Sequence record: PV357169.1
Reading direction: 5' to 3' (one strand)
Origin: a phage
Length of the DNA: 43,293 bases
Below the pieces are notes generated by a model. That model saw nothing but the letters and a program-made list of their open reading frames with translations, was not told the DNA's origin and did no database searches. Of this stretch, positions 7,453-18,268 are shown piece by piece (positions within the stretch are counted from its first letter, which is position 1; every line of letters starts with the position of its first letter). Made by a program: the position numbers and the translations under genes.

Positions 7453-7648
7453 AATTATCACGTACAAAATGCCGCCTAAGAGTATTGTGGTTGGCATTCC
7501 GTTCACTTGGGGATCATGCAGCTTTTGGGTTATAAAGGTAGAGGGTGGCTACATATACCGTCTGGACGATGGACGGAAGGTGGATGTACCCGAAAGAGAC
7601 ATTTTATTGTGTGGAATAGTATACGCTAACAGAATCGAGATTAAGTAA
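7445..7648 (+). CDS. Hypothetical protein (67 aa)
   Basis: AAGGGGA RBS; overlapping stop/start with neighbours. Confidence 0.5.
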   Translation: MHKIITYKMPPKSIVVGIPFTWGSCSFWVIKVEGGYIYRLDDGRKVDVPERDILLCGIVYANRIEIK

Positions 7649-8439
7649 TGGACCAGCCCTGGCTTAGAGCGTGCAAGCGCCTGGCCGTGGGGCAGAGGGC
7701 ACGCTTTCGGTGCTGCGGCAGGGACTCCGCCGGGGTGCTCTATAATAACCCGGATGCCTGGGAATACTATTGCCACCGCTGCAAACAGGTAGGCAAGGAG
7801 CGCAAGCAGTACCAGCGCATACAGTTACAGGAAGAGCCGAGGGTGCAGCCCTCTGCACCTGCAGATGCAATTTGCATTAGCCAAGCGCCTGCAGAAACGC
7901 AGAGTTTTATTTACGGATTCCTTGCTTCAAAGGGAATCATGCCTGAAATGGTGGGGGATGCAGAATGGAGCAAAGAGAAACAGCGGATAATCTTCCGTGT
8001 CGGAAGCGCTGCTCTGGGCCGTGCAGTACATGCTCGGCAGCAACCGAAGTGGGTAATGTACGGCCAGCCAATAGCTTTCGCTGTCGCGGAACCTGCCGTA
8101 GCACCGGCTGTAGCTGCGGGCGCTCCTCTAAAGGTCGTGCTCACAGAGGACTTACTCTCAGCCCTGAAGATACAGCACGCAGTTACGAGCTACAGTGCGT
8201 TGAACGTGCAGGCTATAGCTATGCTGGGTACACGCTTGCCCACGCAGCTAAGGGCCTGGCTGATTCAGAATCGCCCGGAAGTGATTCTAATGTTGGACAA
8301 TGACCCGGCAGGACATGCTGGGGTAGCGGCAACACGCCGGGCACTGCGCCCGTTCATGCAGTGCCGAGAACACTACTTCGCTGCGGATCCTAAGGACGCA
8401 GAAATCAAAGAGATACTGGAGGCATTAACTTGGACTTAA
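7648..8439 (+). CDS. DNA primase (zinc-ribbon + TOPRIM)
   Basis: CCGRDSAG...YYCHRCKQ zinc-binding pattern; acidic TOPRIM motifs LTEDLL and MLDNDPAG. Confidence 0.7.
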   Translation: MDQPWLRACKRLAVGQRARFRCCGRDSAGVLYNNPDAWEYYCHRCKQVGKERKQYQRIQLQEEPRVQPSAPADAICISQAPAETQSFIYGFLASKGIMPEMVGDAEWSKEKQRIIFRVGSAALGRAVHARQQPKWVMYGQPIAFAVAEPAVAPAVAAGAPLKVVLTEDLLSALKIQHAVTSYSALNVQAIAMLGTRLPTQLRAWLIQNRPEVILMLDNDPAGHAGVAATRRALRPFMQCREHYFAADPKDAEIKEILEALTWT

Positions 8440-9710
8440 TAGTTGTGCGTGCAATGTGCACGCAGAAGGTCTGGAACCGACTGCGAGAGCAGATACCCAA
8501 GTCTATGCTTGCGCCGGACACCTCGAACCTGCTGGACTGGGTAGGGCTGTACTGGAACACGTACCCAGAGCACCAAGAGGTGCAGTGGGATGCGATGCAG
8601 AGTATGCTCAACCTCCGGGCCGGGCATCTATCCCGTGAAGAGCGGGTGATTATGGATGAGCTTATGCGGGGAGTACAAGCCGTACCACAGGATTCTGTGG
8701 TGGGGATTGTGCAGACCCTGAATGAGTTGGCATACAGCGGAGAGGTTGCAGCGCTCACGCAGCGCTACCAAGACGGTGAGGAGGTTGATTATCTACTGGA
8801 GATGAAGCACCTCCAGCGCAAGTACGGGGATGGTGCTGCTGTTCATGATTCGCTACTAGAGTGGGAGAGCGGAAGTGTTGATGAGATACTTGCCGCGACT
8901 GATGAAAGTGGTGGTCTTAAACTGGGCGTATTTGAGCAACTCTCTAATAGCATCCGCGGGCTTCGCGGTGGTGATTGTATTGCTGTGGCTGCCCCTGTTG
9001 ATTCTGGTAAAACTAGCCTACTCGCTGCTATTGCTGTGGACTTTGCTAAGCAGATGCAGCAGCAACCGGAGGTGTACGGGGATCGTCCGATTCTATGGCT
9101 GGTTAATGAAGGCCCGGCGACGCGCACTGTGCCGAGGGTATACCAAGCGGCGCTGCATTGGACTCTGGCTGAGATTAAGGACAGGCACAGTAAGCAAGAG
9201 TTTGTGCCGGCCTATTTGGAGAAAGTAGGTAGGGCTGACCGCATCCGTATCAAGGCGGCACACTCTCTTACTATGGCTCAAATCTCTACGCTAATGGAGG
9301 AGATGCGCCCGGCGGTAATCATCATAGATATGGTAGCTAACATCCGTGGTGGTACGATGGAGAGCGAACACCAGAACCTAGAGGCGAAGTGGCAGGAGCT
9401 GCGAATCCTGGGGTGTGAGAATGACTGTGCCGTTATTGGTACTATGCAGCTTTCACTCGAAGGTTATAACCTGCTGTTTCCACCGCTCACAGCAATGAAG
9501 CAGAGTAAGATTGGTGTGCAAGGTGCTTTGGATTTAGCAATTATGATGGGGTGCTTGGACAGGAACGAGCAGCCGCATATGCAAAACATTCGTGGTATCA
9601 GTACGCCGAAGAATAAGATGGCGCTATCGGGTAAGGAATCGCTACTGCAATTCGAGGTAGCATTCGACCCAGGTAGATGCCGATTTAACGAAGGGCAGAT
9701 TAACAAGTGA
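8430..9710 (+). CDS. Replicative DNA helicase (DnaB/T7 gp4 C-terminal-like)
   Basis: Walker A AAPVDSGKTSLL; directly follows the primase; probable TTG start with GGAGG RBS. Confidence 0.75.
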   Translation: MDLIVVRAMCTQKVWNRLREQIPKSMLAPDTSNLLDWVGLYWNTYPEHQEVQWDAMQSMLNLRAGHLSREERVIMDELMRGVQAVPQDSVVGIVQTLNELAYSGEVAALTQRYQDGEEVDYLLEMKHLQRKYGDGAAVHDSLLEWESGSVDEILAATDESGGLKLGVFEQLSNSIRGLRGGDCIAVAAPVDSGKTSLLAAIAVDFAKQMQQQPEVYGDRPILWLVNEGPATRTVPRVYQAALHWTLAEIKDRHSKQEFVPAYLEKVGRADRIRIKAAHSLTMAQISTLMEEMRPAVIIIDMVANIRGGTMESEHQNLEAKWQELRILGCENDCAVIGTMQLSLEGYNLLFPPLTAMKQSKIGVQGALDLAIMMGCLDRNEQPHMQNIRGISTPKNKMALSGKESLLQFEVAFDPGRCRFNEGQINK

Positions 9711-9713
9711 CTT

Positions 9714-9745
9714 CCCTAGCGCCTTCCTAGAGGGCGCTATGTAGG
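9714..9745 (+). promoter_or_regulatory. Conserved stem-loop element C (CCCTAGCGCC...GGCGCTATGTAGG)
   Basis: 7-bp stem TAGCGCC/GGCGCTA; related to elements A and B; sits just after the helicase gene. Confidence 0.4.
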
Positions 9746-9772
9746 TACACAGATGATGGATGGAGATATACT

Positions 9773-9871
9773 ATGTTTATACTGACAGACTGGGAGTGCA
9801 AGCACTGCGGGGCAAGGTTGACATTTATAGGTGGTATGTGCATCCAGTGTGGGAGAAGGCAGAATGCTTAA
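9773..9871 (+). CDS. Small zinc-ribbon-like protein (32 aa; CKHC...CIQC)
   Basis: GGAG RBS 8 nt upstream; two CxxC pairs; below the ORF-track cutoff. Confidence 0.35.
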   Translation: MFILTDWECKHCGARLTFIGGMCIQCGRRQNA

Positions 9872-10019
9872 ACCGTCCGACATTAACTATCTCGACGAAG
9901 AGGTAATTAAGGCGTACGCTGCATCTGTGGGTACTTTCAGCATACGGCCCGTGCTAATTAGCAGCCGGCTGATTGTGCACTTGGCTGTCAATAAGGCGCG
10001 GAGGATTAATTGGAGATGA
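9864..10019 (+). CDS. Hypothetical protein (51 aa)
   Basis: Internal ATG of track ORF 9831-10019 with GGAGAAGG RBS. Confidence 0.35.
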   Translation: MLKPSDINYLDEEVIKAYAASVGTFSIRPVLISSRLIVHLAVNKARRINWR

Positions 10020-10465
10020 CAGATTGTATCGACCACGGGCAGAAGGGAAGCACTTGCCGAGGAAAGTGCGCTGGATATGGCCGCTCCAGATTTGATGGAG
10101 AGACAACTGGAAGCCACCGCAAAGCGTATTGTATAGCCCACAACTTGAAGCTGAGTGATATCGCGGGACTTGTAGTCCGGCATTCGTGTGACAATCCTCG
10201 GTGCATAAATCCGGAGCACCTGCTACTAGGGACTTCTAGTGATAATATGCAGGACCGAAATAAAGGTGCGCGTAATTTGCTGGGCAGCCGCAACCCTGCT
10301 GCCAGACTTACCCCAGAAGACGTGCACAGTATACGAGAAGCATATGCTGGCGGTGAGACCCAGGTATCTATAGCGAGACGCTTCGGGATAAGTCAAGGAT
10401 ACATATCTAATATCATAAAGGGGAGGGTATGGAATGAGCAGAAGCATCCTGATAACGGATTATGA
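10010..10465 (+). CDS. HNH homing endonuclease (copy 1)
   Basis: HSCDNPRCINPEHLLLGT HNH core; paralog of 13155-13589; 3' end overlaps the DNA polymerase start by 32 nt. Confidence 0.8.
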   Translation: MEMTDCIDHGQKGSTCRGKCAGYGRSRFDGETTGSHRKAYCIAHNLKLSDIAGLVVRHSCDNPRCINPEHLLLGTSSDNMQDRNKGARNLLGSRNPAARLTPEDVHSIREAYAGGETQVSIARRFGISQGYISNIIKGRVWNEQKHPDNGL

Positions 10466-12773
10466 GACGCAAAATCACCCATATTACGGTAGTGTTGCTT
10501 CCCCGTACTGTCCGGATAATTACATCGTAGAATCAGCGTGGCGTATTGACCGCACGCACGATGACGGTACGGTAGAAGTAGGCCCCGTAGAGAGTGTACG
10601 GTATAACAGTCGCGCGCACTTTGAAGCGGCACCTGTATCAGAATGGCTCCCAATACCAGCTGACTGTTGGCTGATTGTGGCCCACAACGCCGCATATGAG
10701 ATTAGCTGGTTCCTAACCTTTGCGCGCGCCGAGTTTGAGGCCTTCCTAAAGCGGGGAGGTCGCGTATTCTGTACGATGCATTCTGAGTACATCGCCTCGG
10801 ACTTTCAGAGTATGTATCCGTCACTGGACGAGACAGCTCCTAAGTACGGCGGTACGCACAAAGTAGACGGTGTTAAGATTCTATGGGAGCAAGGTGTATT
10901 AACCTCCCAGATCGACCCTATACTATTGCACGACTACCTAGTTAACGGGGATATACCGAACACGGCCCTGTGCTTCTACGGCCAGTGCGGTATCTTTGCA
11001 GAGCGCAACCAAATGCAGTACGTATGGGAGCGCATGGATGCCTTACTGGCCTGGGCCTACTGCGAATGGTTCGGTCTGTTCGTGAATATGCCGATTGCTC
11101 GCAAGAACCAAGAAGAGCAGGAACAGCGTATACTGGAGATTAAGAAGGAGCTGCAGCAGTATATCCCCAAGGACTTGCCGGAGACGCTAGATTTCAACTT
11201 CGGTTCTGACTTTCATATGTCTGCGCTGGTGTATGGCGGCCCTATCAAGTACCGCAAGAAGGTGCCCTACGACCCGCCGCAATACGTCAAGGCGGACTAC
11301 TGGCAAGTAGGCGACACTTGGGTTGCTGTGGATGATATGCCCGCTCCCCCTGGGGCGACTACATACAAGGCCGGGAAGAACAAGGGCTTACCAAAAGTCT
11401 TCCGCATAGATACAGCGGAAGAGAAACTCAAATGGGAAGAGGACCTCTACTTCTGCCCAGGCCTGGTTAACATCCAAGAACTGCCCGAGGTACTCCGAGA
11501 GAAGTATGCTGAGCGTGGAGAGTTCAGGCAAGCCCGGAATCTGCAGGATGGGACACCAATCTACAGCACCAGTACTGATGCTATGGAAGCGCTAGCCCGT
11601 CACGGGTTCGAGTTCTGTCGATTGGTGAACGAGCTAGGTGCTCTGGAGAAGGACACAGGAACCTACTATCTACGAACGGAGTACAACGAAGATGGGTCAG
11701 TTAAAAAGACCTCGGGCATGCTTCAATACGTCATACCTCAGAACCCTGATGGTTCAGGTATTATCCACCACCGTCTTAACACCTGTGCCACCGTCACCGG
11801 GCGACTGTCAGGTTCTAACCCGAATCTCCAGAATCTACCGCGCGATGGGACGAGCCGGGTTAAACAGATGTTCACCTCTCGTTTCGGAGAATCTGGTCGC
11901 ATCACTGAGGTTGACTATTCGGCCCTGGAAGTGGTTATGTCTTGTGTTCACACTGGAGACCTTAAACTACTGGGGCTACTGCAGTCCGGCACGGACATGC
12001 ACTGTTACCGACTAGCATTTAAGGAGAACAAAACCTACGAAGAGATGTACGACCTGTGCCATAACGCTGACGGGCCAGACTACAAGTACTGGAAGCAGCA
12101 GCGTACGGACATTAAGCCCCCTAGTTTTGCTGCGCAGTATGGTGCTACGGCTAAGGGTATCGCCTTTGCTACCGGATGTACCGTAGAGTATGCACAGGCG
12201 TTCCTGGATAACGAGGCTAAGCTGTTCCCAACAACCATAGGATTCCGCGCTGTTGTCAAGGAAGAAGTAGAGCGTACCGGGGCAGCTGGACGCATTTACC
12301 GGGAGCAAGCTGATGATGGTAGTTATCGTATCTACCGAATTGGTACCTGGACCAGCCCAGCAGGTGCCCGCTACAGCTTCCGTCAGAAGGAGCAGTGGAA
12401 GGAAGTAGTCCCTGGCCAGCGCAAGCAGAAGGTGATGGACTACAAGGAAACCGAGATGGCTAACTACTGGTGTCAAGGTGAGGCGTTCTTCTTGATGGCA
12501 GTCGCAGCCGGTATGGTTCTGCGTGCGATGCTGGCACGTGACTGGTTCGACAATCAGGTGTGCTTGATTACGAACGTACACGATGCATTGTATCTTGACA
12601 GTGCCAATCCAGAGGTAGGCAGAGAAGCGAGCCTGTTAGTTAAGCAGTGCATGGAAGACGCACCTAAGCGTATCCACCAGCTATGGCCTAACTACGGTAT
12701 CATTGGGCAGGTCCCGTTCCCAGCGGAAGCTGAAATGGGTACAAGCATGTACAGTAAGGAGAAAGTAGAATGA
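10434..12773 (+). CDS. DNA polymerase, family A (T7 gp5-like)
   Basis: Motif A EVDYSALE, motif B K...FAAQYG, motif C VHDALYLD; N-terminal exonuclease-like region. Confidence 0.9.
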   Translation: MSRSILITDYETQNHPYYGSVASPYCPDNYIVESAWRIDRTHDDGTVEVGPVESVRYNSRAHFEAAPVSEWLPIPADCWLIVAHNAAYEISWFLTFARAEFEAFLKRGGRVFCTMHSEYIASDFQSMYPSLDETAPKYGGTHKVDGVKILWEQGVLTSQIDPILLHDYLVNGDIPNTALCFYGQCGIFAERNQMQYVWERMDALLAWAYCEWFGLFVNMPIARKNQEEQEQRILEIKKELQQYIPKDLPETLDFNFGSDFHMSALVYGGPIKYRKKVPYDPPQYVKADYWQVGDTWVAVDDMPAPPGATTYKAGKNKGLPKVFRIDTAEEKLKWEEDLYFCPGLVNIQELPEVLREKYAERGEFRQARNLQDGTPIYSTSTDAMEALARHGFEFCRLVNELGALEKDTGTYYLRTEYNEDGSVKKTSGMLQYVIPQNPDGSGIIHHRLNTCATVTGRLSGSNPNLQNLPRDGTSRVKQMFTSRFGESGRITEVDYSALEVVMSCVHTGDLKLLGLLQSGTDMHCYRLAFKENKTYEEMYDLCHNADGPDYKYWKQQRTDIKPPSFAAQYGATAKGIAFATGCTVEYAQAFLDNEAKLFPTTIGFRAVVKEEVERTGAAGRIYREQADDGSYRIYRIGTWTSPAGARYSFRQKEQWKEVVPGQRKQKVMDYKETEMANYWCQGEAFFLMAVAAGMVLRAMLARDWFDNQVCLITNVHDALYLDSANPEVGREASLLVKQCMEDAPKRIHQLWPNYGIIGQVPFPAEAEMGTSMYSKEKVE

Positions 12774-15965: not shown

Positions 15966-16343
15966 ATGGATAAAGTATTAGACGCATACAAGAATCTGGC
16001 TAAAGCTGTAGCTTCAGTGGTATATGACTCGGCGCATGATTATGTTGTAGATGATGATGAGTTGGGCACACTCTATGATGCGCTGGATAAACTGGCTGCC
16101 CTATACGGCATGGATCTGGAGCTGGCCGCTACCGCCTTCAAGGAACACAACGACCTGGCGGCACATGCCGATAAGTTGAAGGGGGACGATCTGGCAGTTA
16201 TCCGCATCGTAGGTACTCTCAGTATCGGGTTGGCGGAGATTGGTTCCTGTATCTACGACGTGGACCAGAGTCTGCGTACGCCAGAAGTAATCGGGGATAT
16301 GCTTGGTACCGTGTTGGTACTGTCTGAGTTGGAGTCGTGCTGA
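15966..16343 (+). CDS. Hypothetical acidic protein (~125 aa)
   Basis: ATG 15966 overlaps the upstream stop. Confidence 0.55.
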   Translation: MDKVLDAYKNLAKAVASVVYDSAHDYVVDDDELGTLYDALDKLAALYGMDLELAATAFKEHNDLAAHADKLKGDDLAVIRIVGTLSIGLAEIGSCIYDVDQSLRTPEVIGDMLGTVLVLSELESC

Positions 16344-16501
16344 TGCTATACTTACATCGTGCAATTTACGTAGTTTTGATTCTCCCACTAATCCCCTTGG
16401 CGGGACTCTGCTACCTGTGCGACAAGCTCACCAAGGCGAAGTGGGCTGAACGTTGGGTTAACTGGGCCGACAAGAAGGCTCGAGACATCACGGGGCGCTA
16501 A
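16343..16501 (+). CDS. Small hydrophobic protein (52 aa)
   Basis: ATG overlaps the upstream TGA and its stop overlaps the next ATG (TAATG); below the ORF-track cutoff. Confidence 0.35.
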   Translation: MLYLHRAIYVVLILPLIPLAGLCYLCDKLTKAKWAERWVNWADKKARDITGR

Positions 16502-17469
16502 TGATTATCAACGGGGTTGACTTGTCCCAGCTCGGGGAGCAGCTAGCCCCGCAGAACTCTGGGAAGATTCTGCTATATGACGCAGATTTTTGCGTGTACA
16601 AAGCCGCCGCTACAGTGAAACGTTTAGATACGGCGATACGTCGCTTCTATCAGCTAGTGCTTGAGGACATGTTCTTGGTGGGCTGCTCGGAAGCAGTGGC
16701 GTATCTTACTCCTGCTGGTTGTGCTAAGTGTCTGCGTTGGCACCTACCCACAGCTAAGCCGTACCAGGGGCAGCGAGCTAATCGGCAGGAGCTACCACTG
16801 AAGGCACCTTTGAAGCGGCACCTGATTGATAATCCGGACCAGTATTCTGAGCAAGGTATCCAAGTAGTTAGTAGCGACTTCTTCGAGGCGGATGATCTAT
16901 TCATAATGGACTCATACGCTTTCGGTGAGCGCGGTATACTGATGTCACAGGACAAGGACTCCTGGCTCAGCCCTATGGCCCGGTTCGATATCCCGACCGG
17001 AACCGTGTGGCCTGCCTTGAATAACCCCTTCGGCTGGATTAAGTGGGATGATACCCAGGCTATGCCAGTACGGGCGCATGGCACTAAGTTCTTCTGGTGG
17101 CAGATGCTAGCAGGGGATGACGCAGATAACGTCAAAGGCATCACATTGCTTGATGGGAAGCTCTGTGGGAAGCGAACGGCCTTTGATGCTATCTACCCTA
17201 TTACCTCAGAGCAGGACGCCGCAGAATTCGTTGTAGCGGCTTATGCTCGAAACAACCAAGACGTACTCGCAGAGGCTGAATGCCTGTGGCTGAGGCGCTC
17301 CCAGTCAGATTCAGCGTACCTGTATCTGATGTCACTGTTGACTACTCCCAGTCTGCGTGACTGGGTGCACTCGCTGCACGAGTACCATAAACAGCACATA
17401 CAGTGGATACAGGAGCACCCAGACAATGGCGAAGATGACTGCGAAGGAAATGAGCCTGCGGGCGATTGA
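16501..17469 (+). CDS. 5'-3' exonuclease (FEN/PIN-like, T7 gp6-like)
   Basis: Acidic clusters LLYDADFCVYKAA, FEADDLF, GDDADNVKG. Confidence 0.7.
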   Translation: MIINGVDLSQLGEQLAPQNSGKILLYDADFCVYKAAATVKRLDTAIRRFYQLVLEDMFLVGCSEAVAYLTPAGCAKCLRWHLPTAKPYQGQRANRQELPLKAPLKRHLIDNPDQYSEQGIQVVSSDFFEADDLFIMDSYAFGERGILMSQDKDSWLSPMARFDIPTGTVWPALNNPFGWIKWDDTQAMPVRAHGTKFFWWQMLAGDDADNVKGITLLDGKLCGKRTAFDAIYPITSEQDAAEFVVAAYARNNQDVLAEAECLWLRRSQSDSAYLYLMSLLTTPSLRDWVHSLHEYHKQHIQWIQEHPDNGEDDCEGNEPAGD

Positions 17470-17641
17470 GTTATACTACGAGGGGAAGCATGATGAACTT
17501 GAAATTATTTTGGACGCGCTGCGTGAACGAGCACCCAAAACACATCGAAGAACAGTTGAGCATTTGGATTCTCTCATTCACGACAATGCTCTGCTGGATG
17601 TAGTGGGGGAGATTGAGTTATGCGGGATATACTCGGATTAA
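17426..17641 (+). CDS. Hypothetical protein (71 aa)
   Basis: Internal ATG of track ORF 17357-17641 with AGGAG 10 nt upstream; overlaps the exonuclease 3' end. Confidence 0.4.
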   Translation: MAKMTAKEMSLRAIELYYEGKHDELEIILDALRERAPKTHRRTVEHLDSLIHDNALLDVVGEIELCGIYSD

Positions 17642-17700
17642 TTATCTGTATTGTAATAGCCTTATGTGGCGCACTGCTGGCTTATGGGTTAAGTTTATGA
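17620..17700 (+). CDS. Tiny hydrophobic peptide (26 aa)
   Basis: GGGGGAG RBS 8 nt upstream; bridges two genes by overlaps; speculative. Confidence 0.2.
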   Translation: MRDILGLIICIVIALCGALLAYGLSL

Positions 17701-17855
17701 CTCCACTGGATAAGATTAGGGCGCAATTAGAAAGGGAAACTACCGTTAAACCTAAAATTAAAACGGTGCCTGGACACTTAAGAAACACAAAGTGTCCGTG
17801 CGGTAGTGGTAGAAAGGCAAAGAATTGTTTGTGTGAGGACCCTAAATGGCCCTAA
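17697..17855 (+). CDS. Small protein with SEC-C-like metal-binding motif (CPCGSGRKAKNCLC)
   Basis: Internal ATG of track ORF 17613-17855; motif read directly. Confidence 0.4.
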   Translation: MTPLDKIRAQLERETTVKPKIKTVPGHLRNTKCPCGSGRKAKNCLCEDPKWP

Positions 17856-18268
17856 GAAAGATTACACGGGCGCAGATTCGCTCTGTGGCTATTAAGCTCG
17901 CCAAAGACCAGGGAGGCGTATGCCTCCTTTGTGGCAAACCTTTGGACTTTACAATCAAGGGGGTAACGGGTGATTCTGTTGTCGTTGACCACTGTCATAT
18001 TACTGGGCGTATTCGGGGTGCTCTTCATCGCTCGTGCAATGGAGGGGAAGGCAAGGTGGCATCTGCCGCTGGGCGCTGGATTGTTGGTAGCATGCAATCT
18101 CCTGGGGCTATTGCTGAATCTCTGCGTAGGGTTGCCGACTACCTAGACCGAGAGCCAACGGATATGCTATACTATACGCATAAGACGCCGGAAGAACTGG
18201 CACAGGCACAGAAGCTCAAGGCCCGCAAGGCCAGGGCACGACGCAAAGCACGGGAGACTATTAAATGA
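17846..18268 (+). CDS. Endonuclease VII-like Holliday-junction resolvase
   Basis: VVVDHCHITGRIRGALHRSCNGGEG matches the His-Me finger pattern of T4 endonuclease VII. Confidence 0.7.
   Translation: MALRKITRAQIRSVAIKLAKDQGGVCLLCGKPLDFTIKGVTGDSVVVDHCHITGRIRGALHRSCNGGEGKVASAAGRWIVGSMQSPGAIAESLRRVADYLDREPTDMLYYTHKTPEELAQAQKLKARKARARRKARETIK

Follow-up and report, generated by a model that had tools for sequence, protein, structure and literature searches.

Small genes in the DNA-metabolism module

The window analysed here is the whole 43,293-nucleotide (nt) stretch of phage DNA in record PV357169.1, the genome of a KP34-like Klebsiella phage (Drulisvirus; Autographiviridae, Slopekvirinae). Four small open reading frames (ORFs) in its DNA-metabolism module were studied, chiefly a 32-codon gene between the helicase and DNA polymerase genes that is termed ZnR32 below. 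All long, plausibly coding ORFs of the window lie on the plus strand. The helicase–polymerase region matched 260 phage records, almost all of Klebsiella Drulisvirus, at 84–97% identity. The features at and around the four ORFs are listed below (aa, amino acids).

9711–9750, plus strand: stem-loop directly 3' of the helicase stop codon, with arms at 9717–9726 and 9730–9739 and a 3-nt loop
9762–9765, plus strand: Shine-Dalgarno GGAG, read from the sequence, 7 nt before the ATG of the 32-aa gene
9773–9871, plus strand: ZnR32, gene for a putative 32-aa Cys4 mini zinc ribbon (MFILTDWECKHCGARLTFIGGMCIQCGRRQNA) of family phrog_17317, with the pattern W-x-C-x2-C-x10-C-x2-C
9864–10019, plus strand: 51-aa gene of family phrog_4548 (E 3.3e-22), overlapping the ZnR32 stop by 8 nt
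16343–16501, plus strand: 52-aa membrane protein of family phrog_7652, with a predicted N-terminal transmembrane helix at about residues 8–26 followed by a basic, Trp-rich tail
17620–17700, plus strand: 26-aa hydrophobic ORF with one transmembrane-length segment, ending in an ATGA overlap
17697–17855, plus strand: 52-aa SEC-C protein with a C-terminal SecA-type metal-binding motif (RNTKCPCGSGRKAKNCLC; Pfam PF02810)

The four ORFs had been proposed, in an original prediction made from the sequence alone, as translated genes missed by the ORF track, and their coordinates and translations were exactly as described there. All four are shorter than the 60-aa cut-off of that track, and their absence from it is a consequence of this limit only. 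As for annotation elsewhere, ZnR32 had indeed been overlooked (see below), whereas the 52-aa protein is annotated in most of the relatives listed.

Start signals were found for three of the ORFs, and overlaps with neighbouring genes for all four. The TAA of the 32-aa gene (9869–9871) overlaps the ATG of the 51-aa gene (9864–9866) in the sequence ATGCTTAA. The ORF at 16343–16501 is preceded by GGAG at 16331–16334, 8 nt upstream, and has one-base overlaps at both ends (TGATG and TAATG). The ORF at 17620–17700 is preceded by GGGGGAG at 17605–17611, 8 nt before its ATG, and shares an ATGA overlap with the ORF at 17697–17855, which in turn overlaps the endonuclease VII start at 17846.

Since chance ORFs of such length are common, the coding case rests on homology, selection and comparison with other genomes. 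Conservation in relatives, the check named in the original prediction, was borne out by tblastn, with matches in 297 (32-aa ORF), 165 (16343–16501), 28 (17620–17700) and 53 (17697–17855) phage records. From the comparative data, the case for translation is strong for the 32-aa, 52-aa and SEC-C ORFs and moderate for the 26-aa ORF; as judged from the sequences, all four are protein-coding, the 26-aa one less certainly. They are additions to already known, uncharacterised families, and nothing in them is categorically new. It is highly improbable that they are chance ORFs in non-coding spacers: although ORFs of 26–52 codons are abundant by chance in any 43-kb sequence, this explanation is opposed by family matches, cross-family conservation, third-position bias, a ratio of non-synonymous to synonymous substitution rates (dN/dS) of 0.064 and gaps filled exactly with overlapping start and stop codons, and for the 32-aa, 52-aa and SEC-C ORFs it is already contradicted. 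Rfam and tRNA scans of the whole window gave no match, and an explanation by non-coding RNA was rejected on this basis.

ZnR32 belongs to a family found mostly in T4-like phages

ZnR32 matched the phrog_17317 profile over its full length (residues 1–31 on profile positions 1–31 of 31; E 1.8e-16, 60.5 bits). Its tblastn matches reached E values down to 1e-12, and a T4-like query retrieved 289 records. Only two of the matching records are Drulisvirus, Kpp-9 and IME308, both with 91% aa identity; the others (about 290) are T4-like Straboviridae with genomes of 160–180 kb and 55–73% aa identity to the window. The latter include the genera Winklervirus, Krischvirus (RB49 type), Kanagawavirus and Kagamiyamavirus, and infect Klebsiella, Escherichia, Enterobacter, Salmonella, Citrobacter, Serratia, Erwinia, Edwardsiella and Cronobacter. 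A further three Drulisvirus-sized and 19 T4-like contigs were found in IMG/VR, and all 22 of these loci were intact, with 30–34 codons. Carriers in Drulisvirus amount to about six genomes or contigs, the window included; the gene was present in 2 of the 260 phage records matching the helicase–polymerase query (mostly Klebsiella Drulisvirus) and in the three IMG/VR contigs. No copy was found in one genome per species of 185,579 bacterial and archaeal species, and a bacterial or prophage origin was rejected for that reason.

The T4-like members of phrog_17317 (RB49p237, NP_891808.1; Salmonella phage S16, AGE48209.1; Melville; Citrobacter CF1; 30–32 aa) are homologous to ZnR32 over the full length, at 58–73% identity. 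They share with it the length, the four cysteines, the signature DWECK(H/Y)CG...L.F.G..C..C(G/K) and an overlap onto the next start codon. The Drulisvirus copies differ in lying in a podovirus between helicase and polymerase rather than in the gp32–frd–td cluster of a myovirus, and in ending in RRQNA or RKQNA, the codons of which also supply the gene that follows with its ribosome-binding site.

An alignment of 15 sequences contained 14 invariant residues: I3, L4, D6, E8, C9, K10, C12, G13, L16, F18, G20, C23, C26 and Q30. Between the window and its nearest relative, Kpp-9, the non-synonymous rate (dN) was 0.043 and the synonymous rate (dS) 0.673, giving a dN/dS of 0.064. Nucleotide identity to the T4-like copies was 59–66%, with about 6, 6 and 19 differences at the first, second and third codon positions and saturated synonymous sites. 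The ZnR32 frame (+1) was the sole stop-free frame across all eight copies compared; an alternative ORF in another frame, 9760–9906, is closed by stops in all T4-like copies. Taken together, the sequence comparisons indicate that ZnR32 is a real and strongly conserved gene.

The gene was nonetheless an unannotated gap of about 90 nt in all eight GenBank loci inspected, namely Kpp-9, IME308 and six T4-like loci (X20, G2248, EcS1, PEi20, SonariX and 011D4). RB49 (RB49p237), S16, Melville and CF1 do have it annotated, as a hypothetical protein. The exact peptide of the window was absent from a collection of about 15 billion proteins. A HMMER search of 1.84 billion representatives returned three true short relatives only; the other 26 hits were long proteins with 3–10 repeated Cys motifs and were judged generic. 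The family has often been dropped from annotations because the protein is below length cut-offs. Nothing specific was found in the literature on the phrog_17317 family, on small zinc proteins of Drulisvirus or on phage SEC-C proteins. What makes the family notable is that it spans two unrelated phage lineages and is often left unannotated; in practice, the four ORFs allow better annotation and yield a few candidates for experimental work.

Predicted fold of ZnR32

The first knuckle of ZnR32 is of the form CxxCG and the second, across the family, CxxC(G/K), with CxxCK in the S16/Moon subgroup. An AlphaFold2 model built from an 11-sequence alignment had short beta-strand segments around the two knuckles, with a predicted local distance difference test score (pLDDT) of 73. 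The top Foldseek hits in the PDB were all small Cys4 zinc fingers, mostly of the RanBP2/NZF type (template modelling score 0.5–0.65, root mean square deviation about 2 Å), at non-significant E values above 0.6; in BFVD only generic zinc-ribbon proteins were hit. The zinc-ribbon-like character that had been predicted for the 32-aa protein fits its four invariant cysteines, its two knuckles, the model and the nature of the fold hits.

Three points weigh against the zinc-ribbon assignment. No curated zinc-ribbon model reached its threshold, the best being DUF7129 (17.7 of 30 bits), followed by RanBP (10.9 of 27); the Foldseek (PDB, BFVD) and PDB sequence or profile matches were all non-significant; and the pLDDT was only moderate. 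Two known families were compared in particular. RanBP2/NZF fingers (PF00641) have the same W-x-C-x2-C-x10-C-x2-C spacing and about 30 residues; their two beta-hairpin zinc knuckles would correspond to those of the ZnR32 model, and they are the closest solved folds (template modelling score 0.55–0.65). They are, however, eukaryotic modules within large proteins, whereas ZnR32 is a free-standing phage protein; in addition, the Pfam score was sub-threshold (10.9 bits against a gathering threshold of 27, E 0.28), the fold E values exceeded 0.6 and the characteristic Asn is absent from ZnR32. Rubredoxins were likewise not matched: NF045720 scored 15.1 bits against 45, PDB rubredoxins had E values above 0.7 and the spacer is of 10 residues. 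ZnR32 is therefore described, on the model and the motif, as a putative minimal Cys4 zinc ribbon with RanBP2-like spacing, and not as a member of the RanBP2/NZF family.

From the invariant Cys4 set, the protein most likely folds round one metal ion, probably Zn2+, held by C9, C12, C23 and C26. This would make it a two-knuckle zinc ribbon of the smallest possible size, a one-metal scaffold that may display a small binding surface in the manner of a RanBP2/NZF finger. The other invariant residues (I3, L4, D6, E8, K10, L16, F18, G20 and Q30, plus W/Y7) would form that surface.

The ZnR32 locus is an accessory-gene slot

The stem-loop 3' of the helicase gene was kept in all nine Drulisvirus loci compared, at 92–100% identity, with a loop triplet that differs among relatives (CTA, TAC or TAT). 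Positions 9705–9775 were predicted to fold with −23.5 kcal/mol (z = −2.85). The hairpin occurs once in the window; it had no Rfam match, no U-tract terminator and no recognisable sigma-70 promoter. Its possible roles are those of a processing site or of a landmark for recombination.

The hairpin marks the edge of an accessory-gene slot. In VLCpiA1a the slot 3' of it is empty and is followed by the 51-aa gene with its own TAGGAGG site; in KPV811 there is nothing at all before the polymerase; AttikonH1 has a 69-aa gene (L002, 1842–2051) and IK_ECO1 a 106-aa gene inserted 5' of the hairpin (L003, 1785–2105), both unrelated hypothetical genes. The window and five others have the 32-aa gene. The 51-aa gene is found in Drulisvirus relatives both with and without ZnR32 and is annotated in VLCpiA1a, AttikonH1, IK_ECO1, Kpp-9 and IME308. 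In genomes without ZnR32 upstream, a TAGGAGG in front of it serves as its ribosome-binding site; in the window the final ZnR32 codons (GGG AGA AGG) stand in for that site. The overlap of the ZnR32 stop with the 51-aa start makes translational coupling of the two genes probable. The ORF list gives the 51-aa gene only as a 62-aa GTG ORF (9831–10019); relatives point to ATG 9864 as its start. Its centre (residues about 25–35) has diverged from all relatives, and the gene is 76–83% identical to any relative.

In T4-like phages ZnR32 lies within the gp32–frd–td cluster: X20, EcS1, PEi20 and SonariX have it ahead of frd, the RB49 type behind it. Its stop there almost always overlaps the next start (TAATG or TGATG), compared with the 8-nt ATGCTTAA overlap of the Drulisvirus copies. 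The genes on both sides of ZnR32 are unrelated among carriers; a conserved partner gene beside it was rejected on that ground, and because its neighbours differ from phage to phage ZnR32 behaves as an autonomous accessory mini-gene. Two other dependencies were discarded. ZnR32 as a remnant of, or linked to, the adjacent HNH gene is contradicted by Kpp-9, IME308 and the six T4-like loci, which have ZnR32 and no annotated homing endonuclease within about 2.5 kb, and also by VLCpiA1a and AttikonH1, which have the HNH gene without ZnR32. ZnR32 as a trans-acting zinc domain of the primase is contradicted by the Cys4 motif of the primase itself and by the absence of ZnR32 from about 99% of relatives.

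The ZnR32 segment is 89–94% identical among Drulisvirus carriers, compared with 80–85% for the flanks, and the window is mosaic over 9400–10900. The helicase end and the hairpin are closest to KPV811 (95–100%), ZnR32 is closest to an IMG/VR contig (94%), and the HNH gene with the polymerase 5' end is closest to AttikonH1 and IK_ECO1 (95–97%). ZnR32 adds a new member, acquired horizontally, to an existing and uncharacterised family that is mostly T4-like, and is a rare accessory gene in Drulisvirus. It would have come there by horizontal exchange, and it sits in a hotspot of insertions and deletions, probably recombination-prone, just 3' of the conserved hairpin.

In the hyperplastic regions of T4-like genomes, stem-loop motifs (PeSL, promoter-early stem-loop) mediate module exchange (Comeau et al. 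2014, PMC4122927). The Drulisvirus locus resembles this system in that small accessory ORFs are swapped at a conserved stem-loop between core genes, the same hairpin preceding different cargo. It differs in that the hairpin is without a recognisable sigma-70 promoter or U-tract terminator and is a single site, not a repeated motif. By this analogy the Drulisvirus hairpin may have a role in recombination.

Possible functions of ZnR32

ZnR32 would share its transcript with the DNA-metabolism genes, and its own GGAG would serve for its translation. The two carrier lineages have unrelated neighbours and non-homologous replication machinery, with only Enterobacterales hosts in common, which points, by inference, to a host macromolecule as the most likely partner; ZnR32 would then most likely act as a stoichiometric binder or inhibitor, for host takeover or counter-defence. 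The composite explanation, in which four coding ORFs include an autonomous accessory mini-gene that arrived horizontally and encodes a metal ribbon acting as a host-directed binder, has in our estimation an even chance of being right as a whole. A more specific proposal is put forward tentatively, as one more likely to prove wrong than right: that ZnR32 is among the smallest folded phage effectors, a ribbon of about 30 residues that neutralises an Enterobacterales-wide host factor (a defence or a housekeeping enzyme) and is traded between T4-like myoviruses and KP34-like podoviruses. Against a host target it counts that the argument is indirect; the target may instead be a nucleic acid, or a process conserved in phages, for instance nucleotide metabolism beside frd and td in the T4-likes.

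Small phage regulators with Cys4 zinc fingers that bind a host or phage macromolecule are known, among them P2 Ogr, P4 Delta and Mu Com. These are two to three times longer and stand in different genomic contexts, and no similarity of ZnR32 to them appeared in any search run, none of which was aimed at them.

RanBP2/NZF-type fingers bind Ran, ubiquitin or single-stranded RNA, and those of the ZRANB2 type bind AGGUAA. ZnR32 could accordingly be a nucleic-acid-binding regulator that recognises a short single-stranded RNA or DNA motif and adjusts, in cis or in trans, how middle-gene transcripts are translated or processed. We consider this unlikely, though it has several features on its side: the Cys spacing is identical to that of RanBP2-type fingers, the RNA-bound ZRANB2 finger (3G9Y) is among the closest folds, the gene sits inside polycistronic DNA-metabolism operons and is coupled to the next gene in nearly every phage, and the C-terminus is basic (RRQ/MRQ). 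On the other hand, a cis target common to the carriers is not apparent, as their downstream genes and flanks are unrelated; none of the fold matches is significant; and the invariant surface consists largely of hydrophobic or acidic residues (I3, L4, D6, E8, L16, F18), which better suit a protein interface.

Still less probable is a role as a rubredoxin-like redox cofactor that binds iron, or as a small accessory subunit, for phage enzymes of nucleotide or DNA metabolism. The two knuckles follow the rubredoxin-like form CxxCG (CxxCK for the second in the S16/Moon subgroup), there are weak hits to rubredoxin-like models (NF045720, E 0.012; Zn_ribbon_LapB, E 0.019), and the gene keeps company with such enzymes, always in the gp32–frd–td cluster in T4-likes and between helicase and polymerase in Drulisvirus. 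The 10-residue spacer is, however, far under the approximately 29 residues of rubredoxin, and no model hit comes near its threshold. The same enzymes are present, without ZnR32, in about 99% of Drulisvirus relatives, and between the two lineages the neighbouring enzymes lack homology.

A binder of a host macromolecule is the preferred reading of ZnR32. The gene matters as one of about 30 aa under strong purifying selection in two unrelated lytic lineages that are used in Klebsiella and Enterobacter phage therapy, and its product is a cheap, synthesisable candidate for a host-directed binder.

The SEC-C protein and the 26-aa ORF

The SEC-C motif predicted at 17697–17855 was recovered above the curated Pfam threshold (PF02810; 24.7 bits against a gathering threshold of 20.4). 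The stretch RNTKCPCGSGRKAKNC aligns with the SecA C-terminal peptides 1OZB (crystallised with SecB), 1SX0 and 1TM6 and with the YchJ C-terminal domain 9L6B. The protein is 90–98% identical in about 27 Drulisvirus records, and homologues with 64–66% identity come from a divergent podophage contig (L018) and a Webervirus (VAC113). It has the RN..CPCGSG.K.K.C motif of the SecA C-terminal domain, which is also found in YecA and YchJ. Unlike these proteins it is a free-standing 52-aa protein with neither an ATPase nor a UPF0149 domain, and its last ligand is Cys, not His (C-x-C-x8-C-x-C). Judged by sequence, it amounts to the C-terminal metal-binding domain of SecA as a protein by itself. This SecA domain is described as binding metal, SecB and ribosomes in E. 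coli (bioRxiv 10.1101/613315). By analogy, the phage protein could compete for the partners of the SecA domain, SecB or the ribosome, and is a candidate for interference with SecB- or ribosome-linked functions. In the PBKP05 locus (L016; MH885472.1, an UNVERIFIED record) a 13-nt insertion and a 25-nt deletion at 1578–1700 disrupt the SEC-C gene, either through misassembly or because the gene is a pseudogene.

The 26-aa and SEC-C ORFs occur as an adjacent pair in about 28 Drulisvirus records, approximately 10% of relatives, and are absent from the closest relatives of the window; the 26-aa ORF is intact in 28 records. Compared with L018, in which the 26-aa ORF is not present, the window has an exact 78-nt insertion that starts with ATG, lies between the ribosome-binding site and the SEC-C ATG and constitutes the 26-codon ORF. 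The latter would have taken over the ribosome-binding site of the SEC-C gene and may now lead it by ATGA coupling. The 71-aa gene at 17426–17641 (phrog_6923) varies at its C-terminus among relatives because the 78-nt insertion overlaps it; in AltoGao it has an earlier stop.

It is possible, if somewhat doubtful, that the 26-aa ORF makes no functional peptide and is a leader or incidental insertion bringing ribosomes to the SEC-C start, or that SEC-C itself starts 11 codons earlier, at ATG 17664. SEC-C homologues without the ORF exist in L018 and in Webervirus VAC113, the latter by annotation only, its locus not having been examined for a 26-aa ORF. The ORF had no significant match in Pfam, PHROGs or NCBIfam (best, phrog_20576, E 0.063), and a 63-aa SEC-C ORF is annotated in PP889474, P0053 being a 63-aa form. 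The frames themselves tell otherwise. Over the 33 nt at which they compete, two informative relatives showed five synonymous and one non-synonymous change in the 26-aa frame, as opposed to one and seven, including two W-to-R replacements, in the extension frame. Replacements elsewhere in the 26-aa ORF are mostly hydrophobic for hydrophobic, its length and the ATGA junction are unchanged in all full copies, and a strong ribosome-binding site precedes its ATG by 8 nt, with none before ATG 17664. This frame-specific conservation, which comprises very few changes, favours the 26-aa ORF as coding. Two observations count against that assignment: 23 of the 28 copies are identical in protein and only about three divergent sequences are informative, and the ORF is absent where SEC-C occurs in more distant phages.

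The 52-aa membrane protein

The 52-aa protein encoded at 16343–16501 matched phrog_7652 with E 4.7e-32 (residues 1–52 on profile positions 2–53 of 53) and contains one hydrophobic segment of transmembrane length, with a maximum Kyte-Doolittle value of 2.38. In most of the listed records among its 165 an annotated feature underlies the match, usually as 'hypothetical protein'. The gene was located just upstream of the 5'–3' exonuclease gene, overlapping its start, in six of six relatives' loci covering the region, even at 37–39% identity. Compared with phi1_146024 (88% aa identity), 18 codon differences were synonymous and 6 non-synonymous. The protein is a syntenic small membrane protein of Drulisvirus and is not new.

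Surrounding genes

The predicted placement of the small ORFs in a replication module was confirmed by the genes around them, which were identified with Pfam except for the exonuclease, taken from the annotation of relatives.

7648–8439: Toprim primase
8430–9710: DnaB-like helicase
10010–10465: HNH endonuclease
10434–12773: family A DNA polymerase
16501–17469: 5'–3' exonuclease
17846–18268: endonuclease VII

Pfam detected only the Toprim domain in the primase, which has its own N-terminal Cys-rich motif (CC...CxxC, Cys4). The HNH endonuclease has a C-terminal helix-turn-helix, and its gene overlaps the DNA polymerase start at 10434. Present in some relatives and absent from KPV811, Kpp-9 and IME308, the HNH gene looks like a free-standing homing endonuclease insertion.

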